Shown here piece after piece: positions 2,087 to 25,311 of a DNA stretch of 64,000 nt. A program made the translations under genes and the position numbers. The notes under the pieces are model-generated. The model ran no database searches, was not told the DNA's origin, and saw only the letters and a program-made list of their open reading frames with translations. Source of the stretch: a virus (lineage: Duplodnaviria > Caudoviricetes). Location: positions 128,001 to 192,000 of IMG/VR virus record IMGVR_UViG_3300037424_000485. One strand, 5' to 3'. The stretch's first letter is position 1. Every line of letters begins with the position of its first letter.

Positions 2087-2161
2087 TGGTATCCCTACCA
2101 AGAATCGAACTTGGATCACAGCCTTATAAGGACTACGCACTAACCGTTGTGCTATAGGGAT
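2087..2161 (-). tRNA. tRNA-Ile(TAT)
   Basis: Full cloverleaf, anticodon loop CT-TAT-AA, TTCGATT T-loop, encoded CCA. Confidence 0.85.
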
Positions 2162-2225
2162 ATTAAGTTGAATGGATCATATATGACCCTTAACACTATG
2201 TTAGTGGTTTTTATATGAACTAAAA

Positions 2226-2304
2226 TGGTAGGGGCAAAGGGGGTCGAACCCTCACTGGATGGATTTTAAATCCACTATCTCTGCCACAATTGGATTATAC
2301 CCCC
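2226..2304 (-). tRNA. tRNA-Leu(TAA)
   Basis: Anticodon arm GTGGA-TT TAA AA-TCCAT, TTCGA T-loop, CCA end. Confidence 0.8.
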
Positions 2305-2312
2305 ATATTATT

Positions 2313-2606
2313 TTACAGCTTTGAAGCTGTCTTTAATGTGCGTGTCCTAAAAAACCCATCAAATTCAGGTACTTCCAATACAAGCAATCTAGCATATCTA
2401 CTAGTGTAGTTATTATTCAATTTAAAACCATCTTCACTAATAGTTTCAAAACTAATATGCCATCTAACCCTTTCAAATATTGCCTTTGCAGAGTATGTAT
2501 CAAAACCTCTTCTTTTTACTTCTTCTGCAAATCGTTTGAATGCTTTAAAAACAATAGGATTGTTTTTATGATATTCCCAAAATTTAGCATCAATCACATC
2601 CGACAT
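2313..2606 (-). CDS. hypothetical phage protein
   Basis: ORF between tRNAs; FWEYHKNNP..F...YSAKAIFERVRW motif typical of small phage proteins. Confidence 0.7.
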   Translation of the reverse strand: MSDVIDAKFWEYHKNNPIVFKAFKRFAEEVKRRGFDTYSAKAIFERVRWHISFETISEDGFKLNNNYTSRYARLLVLEVPEFDGFFRTRTLKTASKL

Positions 2607-2632
2607 ATTTTCCTCATCTGTTATTGTTTTAA

Positions 2633-2707
2633 TGGTGCGCCTACTAGGAATCGAACCTAGATAGTCTATTTAGAAGACAGATGCACTATCCATTGTACTA
2701 TAGACGC
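2633..2707 (-). tRNA. tRNA-Arg(TCT)
   Basis: Cloverleaf, TCTGT-CT TCT AA-ATAGA anticodon arm, CCA end. Confidence 0.85.
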
Positions 2708-2715
2708 ATATAATT

Positions 2716-2789
2716 TTGAGCACCAGAAGGTAATCGAAACTTCGTATTCTGTATGTAAAACAGACATTCTTCCATTGAACTAAGGGAGC
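2716..2789 (-). pseudogene. degenerate tRNA-Val(TAC)
   Basis: D arm and TCTGT-TT TAC AT-ACAGA arm intact; acceptor and T stems mismatched; ends CAA. Confidence 0.5.
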
Positions 2790-3116
2790 ATATACTACTT
2801 ATCTGTTTTGGATTTGAACCAAAACCCCCACGTTGCGGATTTACGCTTACCATAATTAAGTCAGAATCGAACTGACAACTACCCAAGACATGGTGTACTA
2901 ACCAATTATACGACCAGAATATTTATTTTATTATACCTCTTATAAAACAGCCAGTATACCAAAAGCTAAGAACCATAATACCCCAACTTTCTGTTTGAGA
3001 GGATGCTAGGATATCCTCAAAGCCCATCGGGTTACGGCAAATGACACCGGGAGACTTCAGTTCTGTCTTGATTAAAGTGAGTGAACTAAGCGTTTCCTAC
3101 AATGCTCACTATATTT

Positions 3117-3192
3117 TGGAAGCGGGTATCGGAACTGCCCCGATCTTATACTTGGTTATGAGCCAAGGAAGACACTATGCCTACCACCCGCA
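3117..3192 (-). tRNA. tRNA-Met(CAT), initiator-like
   Basis: CTTGG-CT CAT AA-CCAAG arm; 1:72 mismatch as in fMet tRNAs; non-canonical T-loop; CCA end. Confidence 0.75.
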
Positions 3193-3200
3193 ATACCTTC

Positions 3201-3347
3201 TTATTTATCTACAATATCTTCAAGAGGTTTGTAACATTCATAACATACCATAACTACCTTGGATGCGTCAAGCTGCTTTTGAATATCTTTTTCTTCATCA
3301 GAAGACATACTAAGATCGATATCTTTACCACATGAATAGCACTTCAT
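3201..3347 (-). CDS. 48-aa CxxC...CxxC small protein (below ORF-track cutoff)
   Basis: MKCYSCGKDID...MVCYECYKPLEDIVDK*. Confidence 0.55.
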   Translation of the reverse strand: MKCYSCGKDIDLSMSSDEEKDIQKQLDASKVVMVCYECYKPLEDIVDK

Positions 3348-3445
3348 TTTACACACCCCATAGATTCATCATTGCCAACAGTTCAAAATGAACCATCTAC
3401 CCTAATTAAAATATATATTAATCCTTTCATATCATGATATTAAAA

Positions 3446-3524
3446 TGGAGCGGATAGGAGGTAACGATCCCCTTGTGTATGGTTGGAAACCACATGTCCC
3501 ACCTAGGAACTCAACTCTATCCGC
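3446..3524 (-). tRNA. tRNA-Gly(TCC)
   Basis: GCGGATA/TATCCGC acceptor, TT TCC AA loop, CCA end; atypical D and T arms. Confidence 0.7.
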
Positions 3525-3527
3525 GCA

Positions 3528-3758
3528 TTATTCATCTACAGTAAAAAACTCACAGCAAGGATATTTTCTCCCCTGCTCATCAAATGGTTCTGTTCCGTCT
3601 TCTTCTTGATTACAGGAACAACCCCTTGGCACACAATAATCACAATAGTAATCATTATGTTGTATACCGCCATAACTTGGCATATATAACCAAGTTCCTT
3701 TATTACCACAATTACAATACCCTACAAGCTCACCAGTAGCTATTTCCATACCTGCCAT
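3528..3758 (-). CDS. Cys-rich hypothetical protein
   Basis: ORF; CNCG...YYCDYCVPRGCSCN...YPCCEF pattern. Confidence 0.65.
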   Translation of the reverse strand: MAGMEIATGELVGYCNCGNKGTWLYMPSYGGIQHNDYYCDYCVPRGCSCNQEEDGTEPFDEQGRKYPCCEFFTVDE

Positions 3759-3789
3759 ACAATAACCTTATAAGATATTAAAACGCGCC

Positions 3790-3965
3790 CAACTCATGTT
3801 AATTATACAGTCGGTATGCCTACCAAAGACTGATCCGCTATACATTTAGGGAGCAGGGTACAGCAATGAGCTAGATCAAATTTAAGGGGATTTTCACCCC
3901 CACTCTCTTTACATAGGCTTACAGATGGTTATGCATCCCCATTACTTCCCTATGCCGTGATCTAA
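3790..3965 (-). ncRNA. candidate structured ncRNA of unknown class
   Basis: Nested helices TAGATCA/TGATCTA, GCATAGG/CCTATGT, GGGG-TGAAAAT-CCCC, GCTCAT/ATGAGT, CAGTC/GACTG enclosing GGTA-GGCA-TACC; GC-rich, no ORF. Confidence 0.55.
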
Positions 3966-3981
3966 GAGTAAGACCATGTTT

Positions 3982-4056
3982 TGGCGACCTAGAAGGGATG
4001 TGCGCCCTCACTGTACACGCTGACAACGTGCTGCACTACTATTATGCTACTAGGCC
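3982..4056 (-). tRNA. tRNA-Asp(GTC)
   Basis: GCACG-TT GTC AG-CGTGT arm, CCA end, non-canonical T-loop CGCACAT. Confidence 0.8.
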
Positions 4057-4064
4057 ATATTCTT

Positions 4065-4745
4065 TTATACTTTAGATATCATCAGTTCTGCTTTTTCAAT
4101 AACAGCATTAACAACATCATATGCAGCATTATATTTAATACTATTCTTACGTCCAGCCTGTTTTGCCAGAATTTCCAGCATAATAGATCGTCCGTTTCCA
4201 TAGGGAAGTTTACCTTCCCTTAATCCTTTTGCTACTGAGGAACGAAAACCTCCATTCCCATCTTCAAGTGTATCAGCGATAGACCCCAACAGAGAAATAA
4301 CGGGAGCTAATGCTTCTTGTTTGATCTTCTGATCATCAGCCCATTTCTTCTCAGTAAGCTCATAGTCAGTCAGGCCATCATTTTTTTCTCTCTGAGCTTG
4401 TAACTTTTCTTCACGTTCTTTATTACGCTTCTCTTCACGAAGCTTTCTATCTCTAGCAAGCTTTATTTCATGCACAACACTGGTAAGACCATCATCACCA
4501 GATTTCTTAACACACTCAGATCCAACGGTAAAGAGCTTTCCATTGGCATCTTTAATAATATAATGAATACTCAAAGCAGTATAACAATACTTACATGAAC
4601 CAACGGTAAAGGGAAGATTTTTAAGCATTTCATTCCAGTTTTCTGGATAATTAGCCATCCATTCTCTTGAAGGCATTTCCCAAATCCCATTAACTTTAAA
4701 GGGTGCTTTGCCAAGTCCTTCTACTTCCCATTTATGAATGCTCAT
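4065..4745 (-). CDS. hypothetical phage protein with a CxxC/H/C zinc site
   Basis: ORF; LGKAPF...SCKYC...IHY...VGSECV; promoter upstream. Confidence 0.75.
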   Translation of the reverse strand: MSIHKWEVEGLGKAPFKVNGIWEMPSREWMANYPENWNEMLKNLPFTVGSCKYCYTALSIHYIIKDANGKLFTVGSECVKKSGDDGLTSVVHEIKLARDRKLREEKRNKEREEKLQAQREKNDGLTDYELTEKKWADDQKIKQEALAPVISLLGSIADTLEDGNGGFRSSVAKGLREGKLPYGNGRSIMLEILAKQAGRKNSIKYNAAYDVVNAVIEKAELMISKV

Positions 4746-4779
4746 ATCATAACCTCTGGTTAATTTTGATTATGATATA

Positions 4780-4807
4780 TATTACAACTTTTCTTTAACC
4801 TTGTCAA
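4780..4807 (-). promoter_or_regulatory. sigma70-like promoter
   Basis: TTGACA-17 nt-TAATAT upstream of 4065..4745. Confidence 0.5.
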
Positions 4808-4828
4808 GAAAATAATATTAATTAATTT

Positions 4829-4902
4829 TGGCATACCGTAAAGGTGACGCTCCCTTGTTTTCTGGTTTGGAATAAGATGTTCTACTGTTGAACTAACGAT
4901 CT
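4829..4902 (-). tRNA. tRNA-Trp(CCA), partly degenerate
   Basis: TT CCA AA loop and CCA end; two mismatches in the anticodon stem. Confidence 0.55.
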
Positions 4903-4911
4903 GTACATTTT

Positions 4912-4985
4912 TGGTAGTGGTAAGTGGAATCGAACCACTATCTCAACCTTATCAGGATTGCCCTTTACCGTTAAGGCATACCACT
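4912..4985 (-). tRNA. tRNA-Ile(GAT)
   Basis: Canonical cloverleaf, CT GAT AA loop, CCA end. Confidence 0.9.
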
Positions 4986-4995
4986 ATTTAATTTT

Positions 4996-5081
4996 TGGTG
5001 GGCCAGGTAGGATTCGAACCTACACACCATCGAAGATAAGAGCTTCTAAGACTCCCGTGTCTACCGTTACACCACTGGCCC
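4996..5081 (-). tRNA. tRNA-Leu(TAG)
   Basis: Canonical cloverleaf with long variable arm, CT TAG AA loop, CCA end. Confidence 0.9.
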
Positions 5082-5130
5082 ATAATTATTTCATATCCCA
5101 CGTGGGATAAACCGCCATATTTTATTAAAA

Positions 5131-5291
5131 GATTGAACAGGCAGGAGTCGAACCTGCATATCAGGATTACGTTAGGCTGTTACCTGAAAAGTGGTTTGGC
5201 CCATGAGCCTAGAAGATGTCGTTTCCGTTTCATCCCCATCCATATTGGTTTGCCCCACACTCCCCTATACCAGTTCGGGTACAATTCAATC
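5131..5291 (-). ncRNA. tRNA-like RNA whose anticodon arm is replaced by a multi-helix domain
   Basis: 8-bp acceptor GATTGAAT/GTTCAATC, D-like arm GTACC/GGTAT, T arm GCAGG-TTCGACT-CCTGC, variable arm TCAGG/CCTGA, about 85-nt structured insert. Confidence 0.6.
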
Positions 5292-5456
5292 TTTATTTCT
5301 TTTATCTTATCCATAACCTACGGACAATGTTTCTTCCAATCCATTTATTCATACTACGTTTGAATATAGGAATTAATGACCCTTTCATTAGAGATCTAAC
5401 AATAGCTCTAATGTCATTGTTTATAATATTTAGTTTAAAAAGAGTCATTTTATTCC

Positions 5457-5660
5457 TTATGCCTCATGGTAAATTTCTAGTTTCCGTTGGATAGTTTCGT
5501 AAGACTCAGAACAGTAAAAAGGCTCATCTGAACCAGCTACAAAAACGGAACACTTTTCAACATCTAGCTCATGGATGGCAACTATATAGGATGTTAAAAT
5601 GGATAATTTCTTGCCATTATGGTTTGTAAATAGTTGTTTCTGCATAACAATACACTCCAT
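5457..5660 (-). CDS. hypothetical protein
   Basis: ORF; FlbD-like spacing (IVAI...CSVFVAG...YCSESYETI). Confidence 0.55.
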   Translation of the reverse strand: MECIVMQKQLFTNHNGKKLSILTSYIVAIHELDVEKCSVFVAGSDEPFYCSESYETIQRKLEIYHEA

Positions 5661-5746
5661 ATCCCTTTACCAATTTGGACAATATTAAATCAATTAACAC
5701 TATCTATGCACTGTAACATAACCTATGTTTAAAAGCAATAGTTATG

Positions 5747-6799
5747 TTACAGATTTATATATTTATCAAAGAACCATTTCCTACCCTTATTAGAGATAGC
5801 ACTTGTGACATCTTTAACAATAAGGCCACTAGCAATTAGAGTATCTACCTCTTCTTTCATTACATCTGTAACAACCCATTTCAGAAACTTACCCGTATTG
5901 GATACATCAGGAGTAATGTTATTGGCTTCAAATATATCTCTTATCCCCTGCTCAAGCCTGTTCTCTGTTACTGCGTAATCAACAAACTCTTTAACGGATG
6001 CCAATTTCTCAGGATCGATAGGAGCGAGGCACTTTACCTTAGATCCTGAATGCTTTTCGCCCTTAACTTTAAAACGAAACATATTGCCATTGATATTAGA
6101 AGACCAAACTGCACCCTCACCAATAATAGAACCATTTTCCGAGGTGGCCCCTAACTTTTTAGCAACAGGACATTCTCTTTCTATCTCATTGGTGATATCA
6201 ATTAACTCATTCTGAGATAATTTGGGATCGTTAAGATCTACCTCTATATTATATGTCCCAAAATAATCAATATGGAACATTCTGATATCATGGTATTTCT
6301 CTACATAAAAATCAAACCAATTTGTTTCTTTTTCATTCTCATCAAGTGGGTTAATTGTATGTTTAACACCAAAGATAACAAACATCTTTTCTAATTGGGA
6401 TACACCAACACCACCTGTAATGCCTTTTCCACACCATTCGCCATATATAGAAACAACACCTTCAGTAAGATCATACGCTTTAACGAGCAGGCTGAACAAT
6501 TCTTTAAAAACAACCTTGTTTTTCTCAACGTAACATGCAAAGCCTTTGTTATCATCGGGAATAGTTATAATCCTTTCTCTGGATTGTACCCACATATCAC
6601 CAGTGGTAATATCAAAACATACCCCTGCATTTGTGCCATGGATTTTTACTCTACCTGTGAAATTAATTACAGGGAGTATTTTGTTGTAATCATATATGAC
6701 TTTTCCTTTATCATCCTTGCCATTATATCTAAGGTGATCTACAAGACCCCTTACAGCAGACCCATACACACTTATGGATGGAAATTTAATACAATTCAT
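5747..6799 (-). CDS. RNA ligase, Rnl2-like nucleotidyltransferase
   Basis: Motif I VKIHGTN, IYGEWCG (motif III), GEGAVW (motif IV), FKVKG (motif V); start refined to MNCIKF. Confidence 0.85.
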   Translation of the reverse strand: MNCIKFPSISVYGSAVRGLVDHLRYNGKDDKGKVIYDYNKILPVINFTGRVKIHGTNAGVCFDITTGDMWVQSRERIITIPDDNKGFACYVEKNKVVFKELFSLLVKAYDLTEGVVSIYGEWCGKGITGGVGVSQLEKMFVIFGVKHTINPLDENEKETNWFDFYVEKYHDIRMFHIDYFGTYNIEVDLNDPKLSQNELIDITNEIERECPVAKKLGATSENGSIIGEGAVWSSNINGNMFRFKVKGEKHSGSKVKCLAPIDPEKLASVKEFVDYAVTENRLEQGIRDIFEANNITPDVSNTGKFLKWVVTDVMKEEVDTLIASGLIVKDVTSAISNKGRKWFFDKYINL

Positions 6800-7011
6800 T
6801 ACAATACCTCGTCTATACAATTATGGCTCATGTCATCTTGATGCCAAGCTCTACATTTTGAACATTTTATGCATCTACCAACCGCAACATCCATTTGCTT
6901 ATTATATTTTACAGATAATCCTATATATATCGCAAATAGTATGAATAAAATAGATACTGCCCATACTATAATACCTGTCACTGTACAGATGTCGGTTAGA
7001 ATTGTCAACAT
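6799..7011 (-). CDS. hypothetical membrane protein
   Basis: ORF with an N-terminal hydrophobic helix; TAATG coupling to the ligase. Confidence 0.55.
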   Translation of the reverse strand: MLTILTDICTVTGIIVWAVSILFILFAIYIGLSVKYNKQMDVAVGRCIKCSKCRAWHQDDMSHNCIDEVL

Positions 7012-7019
7012 TTAATTAC

Positions 7020-7235
7020 CTATTTTACAAGTTTCTTACCATCAACAGCCAGGATATCTACATTGCCTGTATAGGTATCAATTTCTACATCAAATTTTAC
7101 TTCATATAATGCATACGAGAATTCTCTTTTTACATCATTTGAGAGCGAAAGACCATATTCGTCTTCAATACTATTAATAAAACTATAATTCTCATCTTTA
7201 CTGCTATGACAATACATAACTGATTTAATTTTCAT
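7020..7235 (-). CDS. hypothetical protein
   Basis: ORF in tandem minus-strand array. Confidence 0.65.
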   Translation of the reverse strand: MKIKSVMYCHSSKDENYSFINSIEDEYGLSLSNDVKREFSYALYEVKFDVEIDTYTGNVDILAVDGKKLVK

Positions 7236-7328
7236 TTCGAATTCACATTTTCCTTAATTAACATTTAGCCGATCTTAATAGATCGTTACCAACATACGCT
7301 ACGTGGAAGCAGTTAATTATTATATGTT

Positions 7329-7400
7329 TCGGAATGAGAGGGGTCGAACCTCTGATCTCTAGTTCCCAAAACTAGCGGCATACCACTTGCCTACACCCCG
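7329..7400 (-). tRNA. tRNA-Pro(TGG)
   Basis: CGGGGTG/CATTCCG acceptor, CTAGT-TT TGG GA-ACTAG arm; CCA not encoded. Confidence 0.85.
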
Positions 7401-7409
7401 GTATAATTT

Positions 7410-7748
7410 TTACCAGTAGAACCAACCAGCATCTTTAATCCATTTATCAAATGAATAACCATCATAATCCATATGACGTAAGACACGTGAAGTCTCTACT
7501 TTATCTTTTGCACGTCTTTCACGATTTAACATCCGTGTATAGGACTTTGGCGCATGGCCATCCCATCCATAACCACTTTTAGTTTCTCTATGGTACTTTG
7601 AAACAGTGTATTTATCATCTCTAATTGAACAATTTCTTGAACAATGAATACCAAAACACCGATCATTAACACATTGCTCTATGCGATAACAATATGTTTC
7701 TAAAATTTGGTCGTTAGTGACCTTTTTTCTTCTGTATGTTCTTGACAT
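7410..7748 (-). CDS. hypothetical phage protein
   Basis: ORF with AGGAG RBS; MSRTYRRK basic start. Confidence 0.7.
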   Translation of the reverse strand: MSRTYRRKKVTNDQILETYCYRIEQCVNDRCFGIHCSRNCSIRDDKYTVSKYHRETKSGYGWDGHAPKSYTRMLNRERRAKDKVETSRVLRHMDYDGYSFDKWIKDAGWFYW

Positions 7749-7839
7749 TTTGAATCTCCTATATATGTATAATTACATATTCGAGTATCAAAATTATTAT
7801 AAATTGTTTTCATTATATTTTTCCTTACATTTTAAAAAT

Positions 7840-7913
7840 TGGGAGGCCCGGATGGTTACGCTCCATCGTTGATCGGTTAAAAGCCGAATATTCTACTATT
7901 AAATTACGAACCC
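7840..7913 (-). tRNA. tRNA-Lys(TTT)
   Basis: TTCGG-CT TTT AA-CCGAT arm, CCA end, T-loop AGCGTAA. Confidence 0.85.
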
Positions 7914-7957
7914 ATACATTTCTTACTAGCATGGATTCATAATTCATCCATACTTTA

Positions 7958-8098
7958 TTATTTACCTTGACCTCTTGACTTCTTTTTCTTAGCACTCTTG
8001 CTCTTGAGGTTGGTATTTTCACTATTACCGATTGAAGTTTTCTTCTTACGGCTAATATCTGATTTTTTTGTTGTTGATGCTGTCTTCGTCTTTGCCAT
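7958..8098 (-). CDS. 46-aa basic protein ending RGQGK (not in ORF track)
   Basis: MAKTKTASTTKKSDISRKKKTSIGNS...KKKKSRGQGK*; AAGGGA RBS. Confidence 0.6.
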   Translation of the reverse strand: MAKTKTASTTKKSDISRKKKTSIGNSENTNLKSKSAKKKKSRGQGK

Positions 8099-8169
8099 TT
8101 TAATTCCCTTATTATAACGTTAAATTAATAGTATATTTTACTTCTGACTTTGTGTCAACTTATATTTAC

Positions 8170-8500
8170 CATATATATAATATACCACACTGTTAGCCTT
8201 CGCTATTGAGCAGGGTATCAGCTTCATCCCGCTCGTCAACCGACAAATGGCTGTAATGGTTCCAGCCGGAGTAGGTATTAAACCAATGACACATCCAGGT
8301 TTTCCCTTGGCACCGCATACAGGATCTTGCATCAACTCCGTCACAGGTCGGACAGCCTTTTTCCAGATATGGAATACAACTATAATTTCTTAGCTACTTT
8401 ATCAACACTTCTCAGGAACCACCCTGTCAGTTTATATCAATTTTGCCAACGGTAACTTACTAGATTCAACTGGTTAGGTGTCCTCTCTCAGTAACCTTAA
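8170..8500 (-). ncRNA. candidate large structured ncRNA
   Basis: Many helices: CAGG/CCTG, GACAG/CTGTC, TTCCA/TGGAA, CGGAGT/ACTCCG, GAAA-capped hairpin, GGCTG/CAGCC, GAGC/GCTC, TAGC-GAAG-GCTA; GC-rich relative to the genome. Confidence 0.6.
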
Positions 8501-8504
8501 ATTT

Positions 8505-8587
8505 GTGAATAGGGTTGGAGTCTAACCAACTAACCTAATTACGGATTTAGGTAAATCTACATGTTATCCTAAGGTTCATGTAATCAC
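8505..8587 (-). pseudogene. tRNA relic with a shrunken anticodon loop
   Basis: Acceptor GTGATTA/TATTCAC, CATG/CATG D stem, GATTT-ACCT-AAATC, T arm GTTGG-TTAGACT-CCAAC; no CCA. Confidence 0.4.
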
Positions 8588-8597
8588 TATATTCTTT

Positions 8598-8684
8598 TGG
8601 AAGAAGATGGAGGTATCGCGCCCCTACGTTTTACCGTACCCTAGGGTTCAAGCCTAGTTTGTAATAACTTTTACGGCACCTTCC
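8598..8684 (-). tRNA. tRNA-Ser(TGA)
   Basis: CTAGG-CT TGA AC-CCTAG arm, long variable arm, CCA end. Confidence 0.8.
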
Positions 8685-8769
8685 TAACAATCAATTAAAG
8701 GACACGAATATTATCTACCCTTCGTTATTTAAGATTAGTCGGTTGGCAGACTAATCTCCTAAAAACTTC

Positions 8770-8847
8770 TGGTGCGCCTGATAGGAATCGAACCCATGCA
8801 AATCCCAACTCTTCAGGATGGTGCTCTTCCAACTGAGCTACAGACGC
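8770..8847 (-). tRNA. tRNA-Phe(GAA)
   Basis: GCTCAGTTGGAAGAGC D arm, CT GAA GA loop, TTCGATT, CCA end. Confidence 0.8.
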
Positions 8848-9014
8848 ATATACTTTAAAAACAGAATGTAGGAATCGAACCTACCAATTCGGGATCATAC
8901 CCCGATATAAACCAATAATCCAACTTATTTAAAATATTAACTAGTATCAATATTAAATGTTGGTGGTCACTAGTGTACTAGCATGTTACCATAACATCTT
9001 TTCTGCTTTAATTC

Positions 9015-9104
9015 TGGTGGGGGCGCATAGAATCGAACTATCCCGGCAGCCACCTACTTTGTTTTACCGAATGGTTTTACAGACCACTTGTAGGAAACGA
9101 CCCC
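9015..9104 (-). tRNA. atypical tRNA-Tyr(GTA) lacking a D arm
   Basis: GTGGT-CT GTA AA-ACCAT arm, T arm ATAG-TTCGATT-CTAT, ACCA end; CCTAC pairs with GTAGG in the variable region. Confidence 0.6.
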
Positions 9105-9118
9105 ATAATCTTTAAAAA

Positions 9119-9236
9119 TGGAATAATAAGAAGTCCATAGAGTCTCCCAACTCTAATTCGCACCTGGGAGAAGATACCGATCTAACCGACTAAGCCCTAT
9201 TCGTAGGGAATTATCTTCAGACCTCTTCTTATATCC
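9119..9236 (-). ncRNA. candidate CCA-ended branched ncRNA
   Basis: Terminal stem GGATATAAGAAG/CTTCTTATTATTCC-A, internal GAAGATA/TATCTTC, CCCTA-CGAA-TAGGG, TCCCA/TGGGA. Confidence 0.5.
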
Positions 9237-9436
9237 AAAAAGCTATATAGTGGTATAGCCAATTGATGAAATTGTTCACCTCACTATACAATTTAATTCA
9301 AAATTATTTGGCTTTTGTTCTCAGAAGTACCATAACTCCTACAACTGGATTATCCAGAAGATTTTAATTAGTTATTCCGTCAACTACCATGTATCATTAA
9401 ATTCTTTATCTACTATACTTTAACTATTTTATAATG

Positions 9437-9703
9437 TCAAGCTATAATTTTACATTTATCATCAGGATATATATAAATTATATGATCCTTATTAACCATC
9501 AATATCTCAGCAGTTATATCATCATTTTTTACATTTGTCAGTATAATAAATTGTTTATTATACGAGTTGAGCCAATCACTTAACCTAGCTCCTTTTTTTA
9601 CATTAACACAGGCACAAAACTCATTCTCTATATTAGTAATCTTAACAGATACTGATATCATATCGACTGTATTTTTCTCATAATCTATAATATTAGCCAT
9701 CAT
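9437..9703 (-). CDS. hypothetical protein
   Basis: ORF; RLSDWLN...FIILTNV...VNKDHI pattern of a small beta-rich bacterial family. Confidence 0.65.
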   Translation of the reverse strand: MMANIIDYEKNTVDMISVSVKITNIENEFCACVNVKKGARLSDWLNSYNKQFIILTNVKNDDITAEILMVNKDHIIYIYPDDKCKIIA

Positions 9704-9756
9704 CTACCTATTTTGTTAATGATATCAACTTTTTTTAAAAAAATTTAAAATAAATA

Positions 9757-9795
9757 AGATGCCCATTCTAATCGTCATCAAAATGGGCATCTTTT
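9757..9795. terminator. intrinsic terminator-like hairpin
   Basis: AAGATGCCCATT...AATGGGCATCTTTT. Confidence 0.55.
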
Positions 9796-9847
9796 GTGTA
9801 TAATCCAGGATACAAAAATCTATTGTTTTATATCCAACACCATGCCT

Positions 9848-10004
9848 TGATGCACCGTCCTCTAACGCTGTGAGGTATTATGCGGTATCATCACTTTTAT
9901 GTCTAGAAGCCTTCTATATCGTGTGATCATCACTCACACATGGGGAATACCCATAATTTTGGCGACCACCTAGTTTCCCGATATGAATATAGTTTCTATG
10001 ACAT
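9848..10004 (-). ncRNA. candidate two-domain structured ncRNA
   Basis: ATGTC(A)TAGAA/TTCTAGACAT, ATATCG/CGATAT, ATGGG/CCCAT, TGTGA/TCACA; second domain TGATG/CATCA, ACCG/CGGT, CCTC/GAGG. Confidence 0.55.
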
Positions 10005-10053
10005 TTTTACTACTAGTATAGTACATTATTTGTTTATTCTCTTATTATATTAT

Positions 10054-10082
10054 ATTATATAATAAGTAGTCAGAGGTGTCTA
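10054..10082 (-). promoter_or_regulatory. sigma70-like promoter upstream of the ncRNA
   Basis: TAGACA-17 nt-TATAAT. Confidence 0.55.
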
Positions 10083-10157
10083 GACATAATCTACTCCTTA
10101 TTGGTTGAATATGGATTTAGGGTTTCTTCTCAACATCTTCTGCAACTCTATAATTAC

Positions 10158-10186
10158 ATCTTACTCTATTTGATTTAGGATGTCAA
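10158..10186 (-). promoter_or_regulatory. sigma70-like promoter
   Basis: TTGACA-17 nt-TAAGAT preceded by an A-tract (UP-like). Confidence 0.55.
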
Positions 10187-10191
10187 CTTTT

Positions 10192-10614
10192 TTATAGTTT
10201 AGATCCGCAAATCTTACAAAAACCTTTTCCATTATCCGCAATCGGTCTTTTGCACTTGACACAGTTAGTCTTAATCACTCGTTCTGGTGTCTTTTTTACC
10301 TTCTCAACAACTACAGGCTCGACTACAGGCTCAACTACAGGCTCGACTACAGGCTCAACTACAGGCTCGACTACAGGCTCAACTACAGGCTCGACTACAG
10401 GCTCGACTACAGGCTCAACTACAGGCTCAACTACAGGCTCAACTACAGGCTCGATATATTTCTTCTTAGAAGATTTCTTTTTCTTCTTAGAAGATTTATC
10501 AACATCCATTTCTTCTACTCTACCAACAACAATATCCATTTCTTCAATATCAACTGTTGTGTTATTCTCAAGGCCGAGATTATTCTCATCCTCTTCTTTT
10601 TTATACCATGTCAT
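10192..10614 (-). CDS. acidic/basic protein with (EPVV)12 and C-terminal CxxC-CxxC
   Basis: ORF with AGGAGG RBS and TATAAATA upstream. Confidence 0.75.
   Translation of the reverse strand: MTWYKKEEDENNLGLENNTTVDIEEMDIVVGRVEEMDVDKSSKKKKKSSKKKYIEPVVEPVVEPVVEPVVEPVVEPVVEPVVEPVVEPVVEPVVEPVVEPVVVEKVKKTPERVIKTNCVKCKRPIADNGKGFCKICGSKL
10309..10452. repeat. 12-bp tandem repeat x12 (RACTACAGGCTC)
   Basis: Counted directly; encodes EPVV. Confidence 0.95.
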
Positions 10615-10647
10615 AATTTTTTCCTCCTATAGATAAAATACTACTAT

Positions 10648-10655
10648 TATTTATA
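10648..10655 (-). promoter_or_regulatory. T4-type late promoter TATAAATA
   Basis: Exact octamer upstream of the RBS; same octamer upstream of genes at 13629-36, 19245-52, 37641-48, 45645-64, 49804-11, 55617-24, 61741-48; gp55 homologue in window. Confidence 0.65.
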
Positions 10656-10768
10656 AGAGAGTGAAAATTATTATATCAACTTTTCTTTAAATCTTTCATG
10701 ATCCCAATGTCTATATATCTACATAATCAAGAAAAAGAACTTCAATAACAATCACCTTTATTTTTAAC

Positions 10769-10844
10769 TGGAAGCCGGGGAGGGGATAGAACCCTCAACA
10801 CTCAGGTTCAAAACCTGATGCTCTACCAATTGAACTACCCGGCT
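10769..10844 (-). tRNA. tRNA-Gln(TTG)
   Basis: TCAGG-TT TTG AA-CCTGA arm, CCA end. Confidence 0.85.
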
Positions 10845-15113: not shown

Positions 15114-17348
15114 TTATGGAACAAGTCTCTTCCCAAACAATGACAAATATGTATTGATATAATGGGTTAGGTTATCATATTCCTCCCAAAACAACTGTTT
15201 TCTAACACTTTCAAAATCTTTGGTATATACTTTATGCCTTAAATCAATATCACCAATTAATTTTTCTATATTACTAACTATATCACCCGATGTATCACAT
15301 GTCAATGTGGCATCTTTATAAGGCTCTACATTTGAGTATACACCTGGACACCCTAGAATGGCGTACTCTAATTTTTTGATATTGCTATTATGAGAAACTA
15401 TCCCATTAGCTAGATAATAACTACCATCTGGAACTTGTATATCATAAACATCATTATTAGATTTTTGTATATCAACTATCTCATCATTCATTTCAAATTC
15501 TTTAAAAGCATTTGATCTTTTATGTGATAACCTTTCTTCTAATATAGATTTCTTTCTATTTGATATAAATCCAATATCCTTATGGAATATTTCAGATGCT
15601 TGTCTTCCTAAATACAGAGTATAGTAATCTTTATCATATGTCTTATTTCTATACACTTGTATACGAGATACTATACCAAAACCTAATAACAGAAATTGAA
15701 CATCTCTAACCAAATCTTTATCCTTACTTACAAAAGAAACAGAAGTTGATTTTTTACATGTAGTTCCATCGGTTTCAAACAAACCTGATAAAAATTCTCT
15801 AATTACTGATTTTGGAGATTTTAATATAACATCAGGAACCCTTAAAATCTTACCATATCTTCCTTTAAACCCAATTTTATCACCTAAAAATACTTTTAGG
15901 TTTCTACTTGATATTTTTATATCAAGGCCCTTGCCAGAATATCCATCATCTCTTTTCTTTTCAACAAAATGATAGTTTAATCCTATATTAGAAGCAAATT
16001 CAGTAATATCATAAATAACATCAATATCGTTCTTATTACAAGAAATAGATATACAATTAGATGTTGCGAGATGTCCATCACCTAATACATAACCAATAAA
16101 TCTACCCCATTGCTCATTAATTCTAACTCTTGGCATAACATCATCATCTAAGCTACTATAATCTATGCTATCTAATTTCTTAGTAATAAACATAGGAAAT
16201 GTTAGCTCTTGATATGGAACATCTGGAAAATCGTAAGTTCCTATATCTACACTATCACCTATTTTAAACTCATCCATTCTTTTATATAGATTAAGACCCC
16301 TAAGTTTATGATTCAATGTGCCTTCAATTTCAAAGCCTTTTTTGGTAATAAATTTTAAAGTATCTCTATTACTATATTTTATATTACTGGCTACATTCTT
16401 ATATGAATTCTCCTGCCATATAGTATTTTTAATATTAACGCTATCTATAGCACAAATACCTTTATCAGTTACCACTCTTGTGTCCTTTACTAGACATTTA
16501 CAACTATTAAATAGATTATCCTCCAATGGTGCTATTGCAATATCAACATCGAGCTTCTTAACATACTGAGGAAACTTCCAAATTGATTGCCATTGATGAA
16601 ATTCTATTTTATCTTTAATATCATGAAGCTCTCTTGGTAATGCTCCCATAATAACCCATTGGATATCATCAACAGTCTTTCTAATATAATCAAGAAGATC
16701 CTTTCCAAAGTCGCCACCTTTCCTATCAGCCTTCATAGCAAAATGATTACTCGATCCAGCCCAATATACACGTGGCTTTCTGCTAATCTCTTCTTTGAAT
16801 GGTAGAGGCTCGCCCCATAGAAATTTTGGTAAATGGTTTGGTATTACCCTGATATTCTTATTAAATTTGCTATATACTTCTTTGAGTTTGTTGGTACTAC
16901 AAATCATACCATCCATCAACCCCATGATCTGAGGAATGAATTCTTGTTGCGGCTTATACCAATCAGCAGCAAAATTCCAATCTGGGATCTCTGTTAGTAG
17001 ATCGTCTATCTCATATATAATTGGTGTGTTTGTTTGTCTGCTTATATTAGATTTAAAATATTGCAGCATCTCAAGTTGTGGTTTTGTAGCACTTCTTTGA
17101 AATTGACAGAATAACAAGTCTTTGTAAAAATTAGGATCTGGAATGAATTTATTTCCATAGTTTGCTAAAATTTTTACCTTTGCTATCTCTTCATAATGAT
17201 TTAGTAATAATGTGGGGAAGATAACTCTTATATGTCCACATCCTTGATTATCAGCAGCATATGAATACATGTTTAACTGGATAGGAGGTTTTATTAAATC
17301 CACCTTTGGTTTATTGCCTTTTCTTTTTATATTTCTTAAATTTCCCAT
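15114..17348 (-). CDS. GT-B glycosyltransferase containing an intein
   Basis: YAADNQGCGHIR, IIYEIDD, WAGS..H, DIAIAPLEDNLFNSCK|SNIKKLEY..LGCPGVYS exteins. Confidence 0.85.
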   Translation of the reverse strand: MGNLRNIKRKGNKPKVDLIKPPIQLNMYSYAADNQGCGHIRVIFPTLLLNHYEEIAKVKILANYGNKFIPDPNFYKDLLFCQFQRSATKPQLEMLQYFKSNISRQTNTPIIYEIDDLLTEIPDWNFAADWYKPQQEFIPQIMGLMDGMICSTNKLKEVYSKFNKNIRVIPNHLPKFLWGEPLPFKEEISRKPRVYWAGSSNHFAMKADRKGGDFGKDLLDYIRKTVDDIQWVIMGALPRELHDIKDKIEFHQWQSIWKFPQYVKKLDVDIAIAPLEDNLFNSCKCLVKDTRVVTDKGICAIDSVNIKNTIWQENSYKNVASNIKYSNRDTLKFITKKGFEIEGTLNHKLRGLNLYKRMDEFKIGDSVDIGTYDFPDVPYQELTFPMFITKKLDSIDYSSLDDDVMPRVRINEQWGRFIGYVLGDGHLATSNCISISCNKNDIDVIYDITEFASNIGLNYHFVEKKRDDGYSGKGLDIKISSRNLKVFLGDKIGFKGRYGKILRVPDVILKSPKSVIREFLSGLFETDGTTCKKSTSVSFVSKDKDLVRDVQFLLLGFGIVSRIQVYRNKTYDKDYYTLYLGRQASEIFHKDIGFISNRKKSILEERLSHKRSNAFKEFEMNDEIVDIQKSNNDVYDIQVPDGSYYLANGIVSHNSNIKKLEYAILGCPGVYSNVEPYKDATLTCDTSGDIVSNIEKLIGDIDLRHKVYTKDFESVRKQLFWEEYDNLTHYINTYLSLFGKRLVP
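15387..16496 (-). mobile_element. 370-aa intein with LAGLIDADG homing endonuclease
   Basis: Starts CLVKDTRV, ends IVSHN followed by Ser; GYVLGDG and SGLFETDG endonuclease blocks. Confidence 0.9.
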
Positions 17349-19813: not shown

Positions 19814-20169
19814 TAATCCTCACCTAACTGGATTACTGGTAATCTCTCAAGTTCTGTTATGATAGCATCTATAGTGCTATCTGTCAATTCACCATAAATA
19901 AATAAATCATAACTATAATCCATTTGTTTATAAAATGGTTTTGAATGATCTACCATGTCTGTCTTACTAATATATAGATGATTTATTCTACCACCATTGA
20001 TACCATAGATGCTTGGGCTATCAGCGACATTTGCCCTTACCCATCTACCATTAATAATAGCAGTAATCCATCCAGTTATAGAATGTGGATCTACTATTAT
20101 TATGTTTCCTGTTTTTACTATTTTACTTTCTTCCATATTGTTATTCTGGGTATCGTATAATCCTTCCAA
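19813..20169 (-). CDS. hypothetical protein
   Basis: ORF; WVRANVADSPSIYGINGGRINHLYI. Confidence 0.6.
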   Translation of the reverse strand: MEGLYDTQNNNMEESKIVKTGNIIIVDPHSITGWITAIINGRWVRANVADSPSIYGINGGRINHLYISKTDMVDHSKPFYKQMDYSYDLFIYGELTDSTIDAIITELERLPVIQLGED

Positions 20170-21798
20170 TTTTGGCTTCTATCATATCAATTTGATACTC
20201 ATATATATGGGAACCAGAGCTATAATAATACATCTTACCTACTTTTTTACCTATATATTCAGCGACCATTTCTTGTAGTCTAGCCATACCACCCATATTA
20301 ACAGGGAAGCCAGCCCATAAATCATTACTGCGCCAATAAGTGGTAAGAGTCAGAGAATCACCAACTACTTTGAAATCAATTTCTCTAAGACAGCTTGGGT
20401 CATTAATTAATACATCTTCTTTCCTTCCTATAGCAATACATGTCTGATTAGTATTTGGTGTGTTTAGAAGAGTTTCCATTACGGTGGGTAGCTGTTCGCC
20501 AATTCTTTCTGCATAGGTATTACCAGACCAACATGCCTTTCCATTTCTTCTAACATATAATATATGATTTTTTGGTAATCTTGAACAGTAAACAGCGCAT
20601 GATTTATCATTATCAATTACTTTAACATTTTTATCTTTTAACACATGAGGCATATTAAAAATATCGTTTTTATAAATATAATTTATATATATATTATTAT
20701 CCACTCTTTTAGTTAATGTAGAACTATACCCTATTTTTAAACACAACTCTTGTACATTATCAGCAAGCTGTTTTGATAATGTAGAATATGAACAGTTTCT
20801 TGTTGTGCCATCACATCTATACATCCAGTAAAACAATATTTTTAATTGTTCTTTTGATAGATTCATAAAATCTCTATCAATATATTTATCTCTTGACTTG
20901 CCAAATTTTTCAAGATAACAATATAACTGCTTATCGCTTATTAATATATCTTTATCATAAACTCTGACATTATCAAATATCTTAGAGAATACTTTTATAA
21001 AAATATCTTGTTCTTTTTTATTTTGTTTTGTAATAGTTACAACATATTGATTTTTATCTTTATATCTCCTTAATGACCCATCTGCTAACCAAGCACCATA
21101 GAACATTAACCATATATTCATTTTTATCTGTCTTTGTTCGCCATAGCCATTATATCTATGATTATTATATTCTATAGAAGGAAGAATAAAGTTTTCTTCT
21201 TTATTACCTTTCCATATACCATTCTTTTTAAACCTAAATCTATAATATGGTATATCATCAACAGGCGATAGATTAAATAATTCTCTATTTTCTTTTGATA
21301 TATATAGTGAATGTCCTGATGATACTAACTGATCTATATACTTGGATTTAACATGATATAGAGGTTTTATAGTATCAAATTTAACATTTTCTATAGGCTT
21401 TATATATTCTATTTCATTATTTATAGGGTTTAAGGAACATATCTTTTCATCACCTTTTAGATCTTTAAAAAAAACCATCCTATATCAGTGAGGACTTCAG
21501 TATCTTCCGAATAACAGTATTCCTCATTCTTCTCTGGCTTCTTACCACCTAAAATATAATTACAATAGTATTCTTCAATAAACTCTTGAGTAGATGGTGG
21601 GGCTACCCCAACTGGAACACTAGGAACCATATCTACTAAAGGATTTTCAATTTCTACTGATAGAAAGGGGTACTGTAGACGGTATGACTCATTTTCAAAT
21701 GAGCCTCTATCTATAACTTGTTTATATACTTCTGGAAGGTCTAAATGATATAACACTTGAAACCATGCATCACTTATAGTTTTTCCAATAATTTCCAT
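20141..21798 (-). CDS. thyA: thymidylate synthase (ThyA-type) with intein, split by a -1 frameshift at 21466-21474
   Basis: Exteins join as NEEY|TYAERI; DPSCLREIDF, WRSNDLWAGFPVN, SGSHIYE catalytic motifs; encoded by track ORFs 21457..21798 and 20141..21478. Confidence 0.8.
20519..21516 (-). mobile_element. intein with LAGLIDADG endonuclease (998 nt, one base short of in-frame)
   Basis: Starts CYSEDTEVLTDIGW, ends VRRNGKACWSGN followed by Thr; GAWLADGS and WMYRCDG blocks. Confidence 0.85.
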
Positions 21799-22074: not shown

Positions 22075-22417
22075 TTATTTATCCTTTAGACGATCAGTAT
22101 TTAATATATTATCTACTTGTTCTTTTAAATCCATGTTTTTTTCATTAAGATATCTATGATAAGATCTGGATATAATAGAAGACATATCATCCACGTGATA
22201 TATACCTACACCATTAAACTTTCTAGTAAGCATATTATCACCCCAGCTCAAACTCATTCCGTATAACTCTACCTAATGAATGATGGCCTGTAGTTACAGC
22301 GTCTTCTTCATTCATAAGCATATACTGCTCAATGGTTATATCATCGAAGTCATTAGCTATGATTTCGCTTATACGCTCAAAATTATACAATATGGTTAAT
22401 GACAGTCCTATTAGCAT
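22075..22417 (-). pseudogene. gene split by a frameshift near 22245
   Basis: ...HHSLGRVIRNEFELG* continues in another frame as WGDNMLTRKFNGVGIYHVDDMSSII. Confidence 0.45.
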
Positions 22418-22450
22418 TTATTTATCCTCAAATGATACCTATTCTAATCA

Positions 22451-22657
22451 TTAAGAAATTTTCCTAGATTTATATGCTGAACCAAGGCCCCTACTAAATT
22501 TAGAAGCTTGTCTTGTTGTTGCTGGAATACCAGCATTTTGACATGCTTTAATAAAAGCGTCTGATTTTACGATATTTCTGTTTCTCTCTGCTGCTGCTGA
22601 TGTATCATAAATCGGCGCACCACCTCTAACACGTTCCCACTGTCTAGCTTTACTCAT
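22451..22657 (-). CDS. small basic phage protein
   Basis: AAGGAG RBS; FIKACQNAGIPATTRQASKF..G.G.AYK. Confidence 0.7.
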   Translation of the reverse strand: MSKARQWERVRGGAPIYDTSAAAERNRNIVKSDAFIKACQNAGIPATTRQASKFSRGLGSAYKSRKIS

Positions 22658-22784
22658 TTACATCTCCTTGTTTAATTTTAACTTTTTTTTCTTCTTTATT
22701 GATATAAAGAAAACATATTTTATTTAACACTGCCTATACAGGCAGTGGAAGTGATGTTCTTATATTCAATACATATCCTCTTCT

Positions 22785-23018
22785 TTATAAACGTTTAACA
22801 TCTATTTTTTTATTATATATATCAGACATCATAATGTAAACAAACAGATCTGTTAGATCGTGTTTTACTTTATCCCCTTTTACAAGATCTTCAAAAGCCG
22901 TTGGAATGAAAACACTGTCATCTTCTCTATAAACTTTTTTATTTTGATCTCTAACACCCCAACATCCATCCAACATATTATCAGTAATCATTATTATTTT
23001 TACCATAGTAATAGTCAA
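22785..23018 (-). CDS. hypothetical protein
   Basis: ORF. Confidence 0.5.
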   Translation of the reverse strand: MTITMVKIIMITDNMLDGCWGVRDQNKKVYREDDSVFIPTAFEDLVKGDKVKHDLTDLFVYIMMSDIYNKKIDVKRL

Positions 23019-23159
23019 TCACATGCTGAAAACCCATTCCCAAAACAAACCATATAGGCGATACTAATCCGTTGGCTGGTGTCTTCAAAAGAAAGCATAG
23101 CATATGCCCAATAATAGCAAACAATATAAGAATATAAAGAACTTTAAATCCAACCCACA

Positions 23160-23315
23160 TTAATAGTTCCTCATGTTCTTGTGTTTCTTGTTACGTACAT
23201 AAGAACCCTTGCCTTTTATAGGACGATGTACAATAACACCTATCTTTGAAACAGGTTTACGAATACTTCTTTGTATTGCTATCATATCTATTTTCATATT
23301 CGTTATCATTTTCAT
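23160..23315 (-). CDS. 51-aa ArfA/BrfA-like peptide (not in ORF track)
   Basis: MKMITNMKIDMIAIQRSIRKPVSKIGVIVHRPIKGKGSYVRNKKHKNMRNY*; AGGAGG RBS; TTGACG-17-TATATT promoter at 23347-23375. Confidence 0.55.
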   Translation of the reverse strand: MKMITNMKIDMIAIQRSIRKPVSKIGVIVHRPIKGKGSYVRNKKHKNMRNY

Positions 23316-23381
23316 TGTCCTACCTCCTATTGATTTATTTCATAGCAATATACTACTATCTTTATCTACCGTCAATCTATT

Positions 23382-23546
23382 TTATACATTTTTCTTAAAT
23401 TGGGTATATTCATATAGAACATGATAGTATGAGCTACGTGCTGCGATATACTCATTCTTCAGCCCTTCCTGACCAGAGACACAAGAATAAATTTTATCAT
23501 TTAAACTGCTGATTTCGTTGGATATTTTACTCTCAAAAGCGTCCAT
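23382..23546 (-). CDS. 54-aa hypothetical protein (not in ORF track)
   Basis: AGGA RBS; MDAFESKISNEISSLNDKIY...KKNV*. Confidence 0.5.
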   Translation of the reverse strand: MDAFESKISNEISSLNDKIYSCVSGQEGLKNEYIAARSSYYHVLYEYTQFKKNV

Positions 23547-23581
23547 ATGTTAGTTTTCCTATATTTATTTTAAAATACCTA

Positions 23582-23610
23582 TTGACAAACCTTATTCTTT
23601 ATGTTATAAT
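23582..23610 (+). promoter_or_regulatory. perfect consensus sigma70 promoter on the plus strand with no downstream ORF
   Basis: TTGACA-17 nt-TATAAT with TGn extended -10. Confidence 0.65.
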
Positions 23611-23694
23611 AAAACCTGTTAAGGGGGGAAATATAATATTTGAATTTTAGAAGCAACAGATTCAAATTTGAATTAGAAATTTGAATTAGAAATT

Positions 23695-23943
23695 TTAAAC
23701 AAATGTTTCCTTTATCCAATCCTTAATAGAAGAAATAGTTTTACAATTATCAAGAGACTCTAATTGAGAAGAAGACAATTTAAAATTAACATTCTTTATT
23801 ATCATATTACCCAATGAAGTTAAAGGATGATTACCTTTCTTTAACCACTTTATATAAAGACTCCAACCAACAGAACCCTTTTTAACCATCTTATTAGTCT
23901 CTATATTAAAAACAGTATTACTTTTATTTGTTATTTGATACAT
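23695..23943 (-). CDS. tail-fibre-associated small protein
   Basis: ORF after the adhesin; WSLYIKWLKKGNHP resembles XkdW/tail-fibre-assembly motifs. Confidence 0.55.
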   Translation of the reverse strand: MYQITNKSNTVFNIETNKMVKKGSVGWSLYIKWLKKGNHPLTSLGNMIIKNVNFKLSSSQLESLDNCKTISSIKDWIKETFV

Positions 23944-23955
23944 TTAATATCTCCT

Positions 23956-25311
23956 TTATACCTTATAAATGTAAGCTTTACCACTTGATAAACCACCTGC
24001 ATCGTCTTCCAGATAAGCACCAACAATTGCATAGTTGTCTGATATAGCTATAGAGTATCCAAAGCTATCACCATCACTAGTGTTATAAGCATTAGGGTTG
24101 TCTAATGTACTAAGCAAAGCACCTGTAGCTGGATTGTAAATATAAGCTTTACCACTTGTCAAGCCACCTGCATCATCTTCATAAGGAGCACCAACAATAG
24201 CATAGCTGTCTGATATAGAAACATAATATCCAAAATAATCGCCTGTTGTTGAGCTATAAGCATTAGGATTGTCTAGTGTATGAAGCAAAGCACCTGTAAC
24301 GCTGTTGTAAATATAAGCTATACCACTACCTAACCCACTAATATCATCTTCTTGATAAGCACCAACAATAGCATAAATATCTGAAATAGAAACAGAGTAT
24401 CCAAAGCTATCACCAGCACTAGTGTCATATGCATTAGGGTTGTCTAATGTCCATAGCAAAGTACCTGTAGCATTATCGAAAATATAAGCTTTACCGCTAC
24501 TTAAACCACCAGCATCATCTTCCAAATAAGCACCAATAATAGCATAGCTATTTGATATAGAAACAGAGTATCCAAAATAATCACCATCAGTAGTGCCATA
24601 TGCATTAGGGTTGTCAAGTGTCCATAATAGAGCACCTGTAGAAGAATTGTAAATATAAGCTTTACCACTACCTGTGCCACCTGCATCATCTTCATAAGGA
24701 GCACCAACAATAGCATAGCTATCTGATATAGCTATAGAGTATCCAAAACCATCAACAGCACTAGTGTCATAAGCATTAGGGTTATCTAGTGTCCATAATA
24801 GAACACCAGTAGCATTATCATAAATATAAGCTTTACCACTGTCCAATCCACCTGCATCATCTTCCAGCATAGCACCTACAATTGCATAGCTTTCTGAAAT
24901 AGAAACAGCTCTACCAAAGTTATCATTAAGGCTAGTGTCATAAGCATTAGGGTTATCTAGTGTCCATAATAGAACACCAGTAGCATTATCGAAAATATAA
25001 GCTTTACCACTACCTGTTCCGCCTATATCATCTTCAGCATAAGCACCTACAATTGCATAGCTATTTGATATAGATACAGCTCTACCAAAATAGTCATTAA
25101 GGCTAGTGTCATAAGCATTAGGGTTGTCTAGTGTGCGAAGAAAACTTATAAGTGCCTTACCATAGCCATCAGAAAGACTAATAGCACCTGTATAAACACC
25201 AAACAAATGTCTCAAATTAGCCTGTCCAAGGCTAATTAGTGTTGTTGATATTTCACTAAGCTCAGTATTTACTTGTGATAATGATATGCTTCCGCTTGCT
25301 GGTAATGTCAT
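23956..25311 (-). CDS. adhesin-like protein: short fibre-tip N-domain plus 7 FG-GAP-type beta-propeller blades
   Basis: MTLPASGSISLSQVNTEL...GAISLSDGYGK N-terminus; 7x TLDNPNAY..D.FG.SV.IS..YAIVGA.ED..G..SGKAYI. Confidence 0.8.
   Translation of the reverse strand: MTLPASGSISLSQVNTELSEISTTLISLGQANLRHLFGVYTGAISLSDGYGKALISFLRTLDNPNAYDTSLNDYFGRAVSISNSYAIVGAYAEDDIGGTGSGKAYIFDNATGVLLWTLDNPNAYDTSLNDNFGRAVSISESYAIVGAMLEDDAGGLDSGKAYIYDNATGVLLWTLDNPNAYDTSAVDGFGYSIAISDSYAIVGAPYEDDAGGTGSGKAYIYNSSTGALLWTLDNPNAYGTTDGDYFGYSVSISNSYAIIGAYLEDDAGGLSSGKAYIFDNATGTLLWTLDNPNAYDTSAGDSFGYSVSISDIYAIVGAYQEDDISGLGSGIAYIYNSVTGALLHTLDNPNAYSSTTGDYFGYYVSISDSYAIVGAPYEDDAGGLTSGKAYIYNPATGALLSTLDNPNAYNTSDGDSFGYSIAISDNYAIVGAYLEDDAGGLSSGKAYIYKV

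Follow-up and report, generated by a model that had tools for sequence, protein, structure and literature searches.

A 51-residue phage peptide with an ArfA-like tail and a remodelled head is a candidate unregulated ribosome-rescue factor

A gene for a 51-aa peptide was found in the genome of a virus that, judged by its marker proteins, is a distant T4-like myovirus. The open reading frame is a selected protein-coding gene, and residues 30-51 of its product were shown by profile comparison to be homologous, in exact register, to the segment of ArfA that occupies the vacant mRNA channel when a ribosome has stalled at the 3' end of its message. ArfA itself is seen as a back-up factor of proteobacteria, narrow in distribution and held low by an unusual circuit of non-stop mRNA. 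We put at roughly 60% the probability that the phage product is a release-factor-dependent, unregulated (constitutive) ribosome-rescue peptide of a remodelled ArfA type, made at mature length. The window analysed here is a stretch of 64,000 nucleotides (128001-192000) from an IMG/VR virus record of 204,431 bp, which has 32% G+C and an estimated completeness of 85%. It contains the following features.

2087-10844: tRNA island, 12 kb from the ArfA-like gene
22981..23160, minus strand: downstream 59-aa ORF, hydrophobic, no family, in the same transcription unit
23160..23315, minus strand: coding sequence of the ArfA-like peptide (P0001), 51 aa, ATG start, stop included
23163..23225, minus strand: codons 31-51, basic tail homologous to ArfA 31-51 (Pfam, PDB search, hhalign)
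23226..23261, minus strand: codons 19-30, Pro and beta-prone hydrophobic strand (family alignments), role putative
23323..23328, minus strand: ribosome-binding site AGGAGG, 7-nt spacer to the ATG
23347..23375, minus strand: sigma-70-like promoter TTGACG-17-TATATT, 10 of 12 consensus matches in the promoter scan
23382..23546, minus strand: upstream 54-aa ORF, no family, in the same small-gene array (ORF list)

The sequence-only reading had proposed a 51-aa ORF with an AGGAGG site and its own promoter, and both were recovered where listed. Read from the sequence, the start ATG lies at 23313-23315 and the stop TAA at 23160-23162 on the minus strand, and the region of the ribosome-binding site was unfolded as RNA (z 0.04). 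The promoter occupies the 66-nt gap behind the upstream 54-aa ORF; taken alone it is weak evidence, because such sites are common in AT-rich DNA (14 observed in the AT-rich stretch scanned vs 10.1 in shuffled sequences). The stop of the peptide gene and the ATG of the 59-aa ORF overlap by one base (TAATG). This 59-aa ORF is not a conserved neighbor, as no gene directly follows the homologue on the related contig L001.

The tail was compared with E. coli ArfA (YhdL; reference translated from the K-12 record; structures PDB 5MDV, 5MDW, 5U4I, 5H5U, 5MGP, and 7OJ0). The KGKGS motif noted earlier is present, and it falls at the residue numbers of E. coli ArfA: K34, G35, K36, G37, S38, Y39, R41, K44, and H45 are identical in residue and number in the two proteins, as are V29, N47, and N50. 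In ArfA, the vacant mRNA tunnel is occupied by residues 31-48, almost half of which are basic; truncation at N47 leaves the protein active, whereas truncation after M40 abolishes its function (PMC5378476). The phage peptide therefore holds the whole minimal tail. Its overall length also equals that of the active truncated form of E. coli ArfA, as had been suggested, with 51 aa against 52-55 aa for mature ArfA (PMC6299226). Like E. coli ArfA, the peptide carries no catalytic motif, and no RF-1 (GGQ-bearing) domain was matched in Pfam, where ArfA was the only hit; a release factor would therefore have to perform the chemistry.

Searches with family models gave the same answer at modest scores. 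ArfA (PF03889) was the sole Pfam family returned for the peptide (E 2.7e-4, residues 29-46 on model positions 27-44 of 44) in the HMM check that the earlier proposal had called for, but the score of 20.8 bits falls under the gathering threshold of 25.5. Other scored family members reached 18.4-23.3 bits, and two members carry a precomputed PF03889 match. All nine members of the family alignment matched ArfA at E < 0.01 (best 1.1e-5), with one other Pfam family appearing once among the nine. NCBIfam gave no match for the peptide, and PHROGs gave an unnamed family alone, weakly. The single sequence searched against all PDB chains ranked ArfA first, weakly (E 0.15), while the family profile searched against all PDB sequences returned ArfA chains only below E 0.01 (7e-5 to 4e-3), the next match standing at E 0.89. 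By hhalign, the family aligned with E. coli ArfA at 94%, columns 30-53 on 30-53, and with an ArfA alignment including phage ArfAs at 96.7% (E 4.6e-10, 23 columns). Similarity beyond the short motif thus extends over a tail of 23-24 columns in register, and the part of ArfA that activates RF2, the N-terminal part, was left unmatched. A homologue search with E. coli ArfA listed close enterobacterial sequences only. In an alignment of 21 sequences running from this family through to E. coli ArfA, K34, G35, K36, Y39, and R41 were invariant and V29, P32, G37, and S38 were conserved in at least 90%. In a language-model atlas, the nearest cluster was all-viral, with PF03889 in 15% of its members (score 0.92).

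The front half of the peptide is different. In E. coli ArfA, P23 packs on A1492/A1493 (PMC5378476), residues 15-24 form a short helix, F25 makes RF2-specific hydrophobic contacts, and Q27-E30 extend the domain 2/4 sheet of RF2 by a strand; the N terminus becomes ordered only on RF2 opening, a step that A18T blocks (PMC8012679). The N-terminal hydrophobic minidomain of ArfA (residues 1-20, including A18), which triggers hydrolysis once ordered against the switch loop of RF2, could not be aligned with the phage peptide, and profile comparison by hhalign gave no alignment to ArfA before column 30; pairwise phmmer placed residues 13-21 on ArfA 15-23, weakly (E 0.15). Because family members have only 8-20 residues ahead of the Pro, with no conserved pattern, the minidomain is not a feature of this family. 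The residues that are invariant in the front half of the family are R19, P21, G26, V27, I28, and H30. As in E. coli ArfA, a Pro stands ahead of a short putative strand, and this Pro and V29 align with their ArfA counterparts, although profile methods are silent there and the spacing is two residues longer, with eight residues from Pro to V29 in the family versus six in ArfA. The segment I25-V29 is hydrophobic and beta-prone, where ArfA has F25 and a polar strand that pairs with RF2. The Pro recurs across several head types in the 21-sequence alignment. AlphaFold2 run on the family alignment was uninterpretable (mean pLDDT 59, pTM 0.17), and modelling of a complex between the family and E. coli RF2, run on the family alignment without controls, scored 0.00 and counts neither way. 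From these alignments, the peptide may be read as a diverged ArfA with a remodelled head, in which the Pro and strand of codons 19-30 would take the place of ArfA P23 and the strand Q27-E30.

ArfA genes are carried by other phages. The product of g10 of Citromicrobium phage RXM is annotated as ArfA (PMC8953757), and gp30 (ArfA) of pelagiphage HTVC027P shows high expression at 3 h post infection and once more at 12-15 h (PMC12753301). In Pseudoalteromonas phage J2-1, the annotated ArfA scored 41 bits with PF03889. Pseudomonas phage pf16 (KU873925.1) has an unannotated 47-aa full-length ArfA ORF (L012:1495-1638, 72.5 bits); its record annotates an opposite-strand hypothetical ORF, pf16_199, that overlaps the start of the ArfA ORF. 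An ArfA homologue in Salmonella phage Arash, gp99 (L011:1417-1641), is labelled 'ribosomal protein L2' and lies within a cluster of tRNA genes; an internal Met is its probable start. Roseobacter phage CRP-212 has a 41-aa ArfA-like ORF (L014:1489-1611) that lies over the 3' end of gp38 (1203 aa) but in a different reading frame; this reflects either an over-extended annotation of gp38 or a true gene overlap. All phage ArfA genes examined encode 41-51 aa and have true stops. The family described here resembles these canonical phage ArfAs in being short and phage-borne, in having a true stop soon past the tail, and in sharing a V-(E/H)-K-P-K-K segment and the core motif. Unlike them, it has a different head, and it matches only the last 18 positions of the ArfA model, whereas the pf16 and J2-1 proteins match the model at full length above its cut-off. 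Canonical phage ArfA genes are thus already annotated, and the remodelled type is not. In the literature searched, an experimental test of any phage ArfA was not found.

The same tail is more widespread among viruses. A pattern scan of IMG/VR for the end of the strand plus the tail yielded 28 loci (L015-L042) with ORFs of 33-73 aa, all sharing V-H-K/R-P and the core motif and together carrying at least five unrelated heads; in L020, L025, and L039, the start is zinc-ribbon-like (CxxC...CxxxC). Some tail-sharing peptides also matched DUF7230 (PF23876) weakly, and the J2-1 ArfA matched it above cut-off; we know of no function for this family.

The diversity of heads on one tail suggests a portable docking module, and it bears on the alternative that survives best, namely that the ArfA-type tail docks in the empty channel while the nascent chain is not released, the peptide acting as a blocker or competitor or recruiting another partner. 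Such a peptide might bar tmRNA-SmpB or host ArfA from the ribosome so that no tagging occurs, might park vacant host ribosomes, or might recruit a partner other than RF2. The homology can be demonstrated for the tail alone, that tail is found behind many unrelated heads in the 28 viral loci, including a zinc-ribbon-like one, and the A18T variant of ArfA demonstrates that the protein can bind and recruit RF2 yet fail to bring about activation (PMC8012679). Yet every head type retains V29 of the RF2-pairing strand along with its flanking basic residues, a short head is no bar to function, as the 40-aa ArfT works (PMC6299226), and release of ribosomes is the more obvious gain for a lytic phage. 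We therefore consider docking without release unlikely, though deserving of weight. A related proposal, which we hold rather doubtful, is that the ArfA tail is a portable 'empty-channel sensor' mounted on interchangeable heads, where the head engages a partner other than RF2, which might be RF1 or a host-specific factor, or plugs the channel and so might deny tmRNA-SmpB, and rescue or defence factors of the host, access to stalled ribosomes. If this were true, the phage would not simply supplement the ribosome quality control of its host but would redirect it.

It is improbable, in our estimate, that the peptide is instead a generic early product, basic and nucleic-acid-binding, that acts away from the ribosome and whose likeness to ArfA is convergent or coincidental. 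The match is indeed short, rich in lysine and glycine, and under the Pfam cut-off, and AlphaFold gave no confident fold. Against coincidence, 11 of 17 ungapped positions are identical between the peptide and E. coli ArfA, with matching residue numbers. Across all six frames of the 204-kb genome, the core hexapeptide is encoded a single time, against 0.009 expected, and the nine-residue pattern is expected 6e-7 times per genome; a six-frame search of the whole genome with the ArfA model found this single place (E 1.5e-4). ArfA is the only Pfam family for the peptide and the only PDB match of the family profile below E 0.01, intermediates in the 21-sequence alignment bridge the family to canonical ArfA, and the PF03889 cut-off is passed by three of the ten tail-sharing viral ORFs scanned.

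Evidence for selection came from related sequences. The identical protein was called by gene callers on three further metagenome contigs, and word-indexed and exhaustive searches together yielded a small family of proteins of 41-53 aa. Two of these are encoded on T4-like contigs (L001 and L006) in a conserved gene order, with rIIA/rIIB, three opposite-strand small genes, the peptide gene, a cell-wall hydrolase, and a CCA-adding enzyme, the last 1.2-1.8 kb from the peptide gene in both. The pN/pS values of three homologue pairs, computed in every case over 27 alignable core codons, were 0.19/0.64, 0.26/0.86, and 0.20/0.89, indicating purifying selection, with synonymous sites near saturation (pS 0.64-0.89) and little non-synonymous change (pN 0.19-0.26). 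A promoter-like site lies just upstream of the gene in both relatives and thus at all three homologues, which would fit early transcription by the host polymerase. The possibility that the ORF is not a gene and is a chance open frame in AT-rich intergenic DNA is practically untenable: the ORF is short and unannotated in every source, and a promoter match is weak evidence in such DNA, but the ribosome-binding site is strong and correctly spaced, gene callers found the ORF on independent contigs, and the T4-like homologues differ by saturated synonymous changes and few non-synonymous ones.

Several other matches were rejected or came to nothing. A match on L005 (an Acidobacteriaceae MAG) was attributed to chance, as it lies antisense inside a 557-aa gene; a 1231-aa match (P0003) from the exhaustive representative search was spurious, being a repeat-rich, fibre-like protein whose repeat resembles the strand and the start of the tail; and three Klebsiella phage matches in a tblastn search of phages with the peptide (E 2) were taken as chance. 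Species-representative bacterial genomes gave no counterpart, the chance match on L005 being the only one there. Scanning viral contigs for related loci with the family alignment confirmed nothing, and when IMG/VR was scanned by exact pattern for the strand and tail particular to this family, and so for its head type, 0 loci were returned. In the relative on L006, a weak terminator-like hairpin (L006:6321-6340) spans the end of the peptide gene, from its last codons through the stop; its T-run falls past the stop, so the message would retain the stop.

The gene differs from its bacterial counterparts in how its product would be made. In bacteria, ArfA and BrfA are produced from truncated messages that lack a stop, and tmRNA keeps them low (PMC8012679). 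Unlike the E. coli gene, the phage gene has a real stop, with TAA standing in frame at codon 52 and coupling the gene to the next one, no RNase III hairpin, and no tmRNA-linked control. The promoter/terminator scan found no terminator-like site in 22400-24000, the 3' fold was not distinct from shuffled sequences (z -1.38), and there was no internal hairpin. With a true stop and neither an internal hairpin nor a terminator, the peptide would therefore be made at mature length and outside the tmRNA circuit. The earlier suggestion of a constitutively active form fits these findings.

Two other small rescue factors were compared. ArfT of Francisella tularensis, a working rescue factor of 40 aa that acts with RF1 or RF2, shows that a minimal head can suffice (PMC6299226). 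Like the phage peptide, it is a very small stand-alone peptide with a lysine/glycine-rich tail near its C terminus; according to its description, ArfT has no shared motif past the charge pattern (PMC6299226). BrfA (YqkK) of Bacillus subtilis (PDB 6SZS) performs release-factor-dependent rescue with its tail in the mRNA channel, as would be predicted by analogy for the phage peptide, and has in common with it the K-H pair, whose contacts are conserved in ArfA and BrfA (PMC8012679). The BrfA message is truncated by a terminator and that of the phage gene is not. The sequence-only reading had gone further, treating KGKGS as shared by ArfA and BrfA and the peptide as BrfA-like; this part did not hold, as BrfA was absent from the PDB matches at E <=10 for both the single sequence and the family profile, and the KH motif, not KGKGS, is the sole motif named as common to the two proteins in a review (PMC8012679).

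The assignment of the source virus to distant T4-like myoviruses comes from its large terminase, which is of T4 type with cyanophages as its best cultured relatives (about 36% identity), from a tail sheath with 33-39% identity to its counterparts in pelagiphages, rhizobiophages, and others, and from a gp6-like baseplate protein. A megablast search of the 5-kb surroundings of the gene against cultured phages gave no match. No PF00472 (RF-1 domain) match was found anywhere in the phage genome, and that genome was searched for a release-factor domain, SmpB, and tmRNA, none of which turned up; a host factor would therefore have to act. The gene for the CCA-adding enzyme lies about 117 kb from the ArfA-like gene in this phage. 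Models for RegB and T4 RNA ligase 1 found no match in the phage, and the controls were equally silent.

Other features of the window were recorded as well. A perfect sigma-70 consensus promoter (TTGACA, 17 nt, TATAAT, with TG) at 23582-23610 on the plus strand opposes all surrounding genes and has no plus-strand ORF behind it. At 22075-22417 on the minus strand, overlapping ORFs of 59 and 60 aa match the two halves of DUF6794 (model 11-50 and 51-83), which points to a gene that is split or frameshifted, or else to a programmed shift. A thymidylate-synthase-like gene with a LAGLIDADG insert (20141-21798, minus strand) is spread over two ORFs (113 and 445 aa, with a 22-nt overlap), of which the first terminates in an intein-like start, and a second intein-bearing protein is encoded at 15114-17348.

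As a rescue factor, the peptide would be expected to work as follows. The tail would dock only where the mRNA channel is empty and would place the conserved Pro and the beta-prone strand, residues 25-30, in the decoding centre. As ArfA Q27-E30 does with RF2, the strand would extend the beta-sheet of a class-I release factor from the host, whose GGQ loop would then hydrolyse the peptidyl-tRNA without a stop codon. Not coming from a non-stop message, the peptide would escape tmRNA tagging, and it should accumulate from the start of infection through its host-type promoter. It would provide extra rescue capacity when message decay or RNA-cutting defences put ribosomes on truncated mRNAs; a link to the tRNA island or to RNA-cleaving defences of the host is plausible.

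In contrast to E. coli ArfA, the peptide is encoded by a phage, and phage ArfAs made at mature length with ordinary stops would be natural, always-on rescue factors. Their existence suggests that the release of stalled ribosomes limits phage yield. The remodelled head and the other heads found on the same tail would form a natural series from which it may be learned which part of ArfA recruits the release factor and which part activates it, and the series would also bear on the host specificity of the release-factor step.
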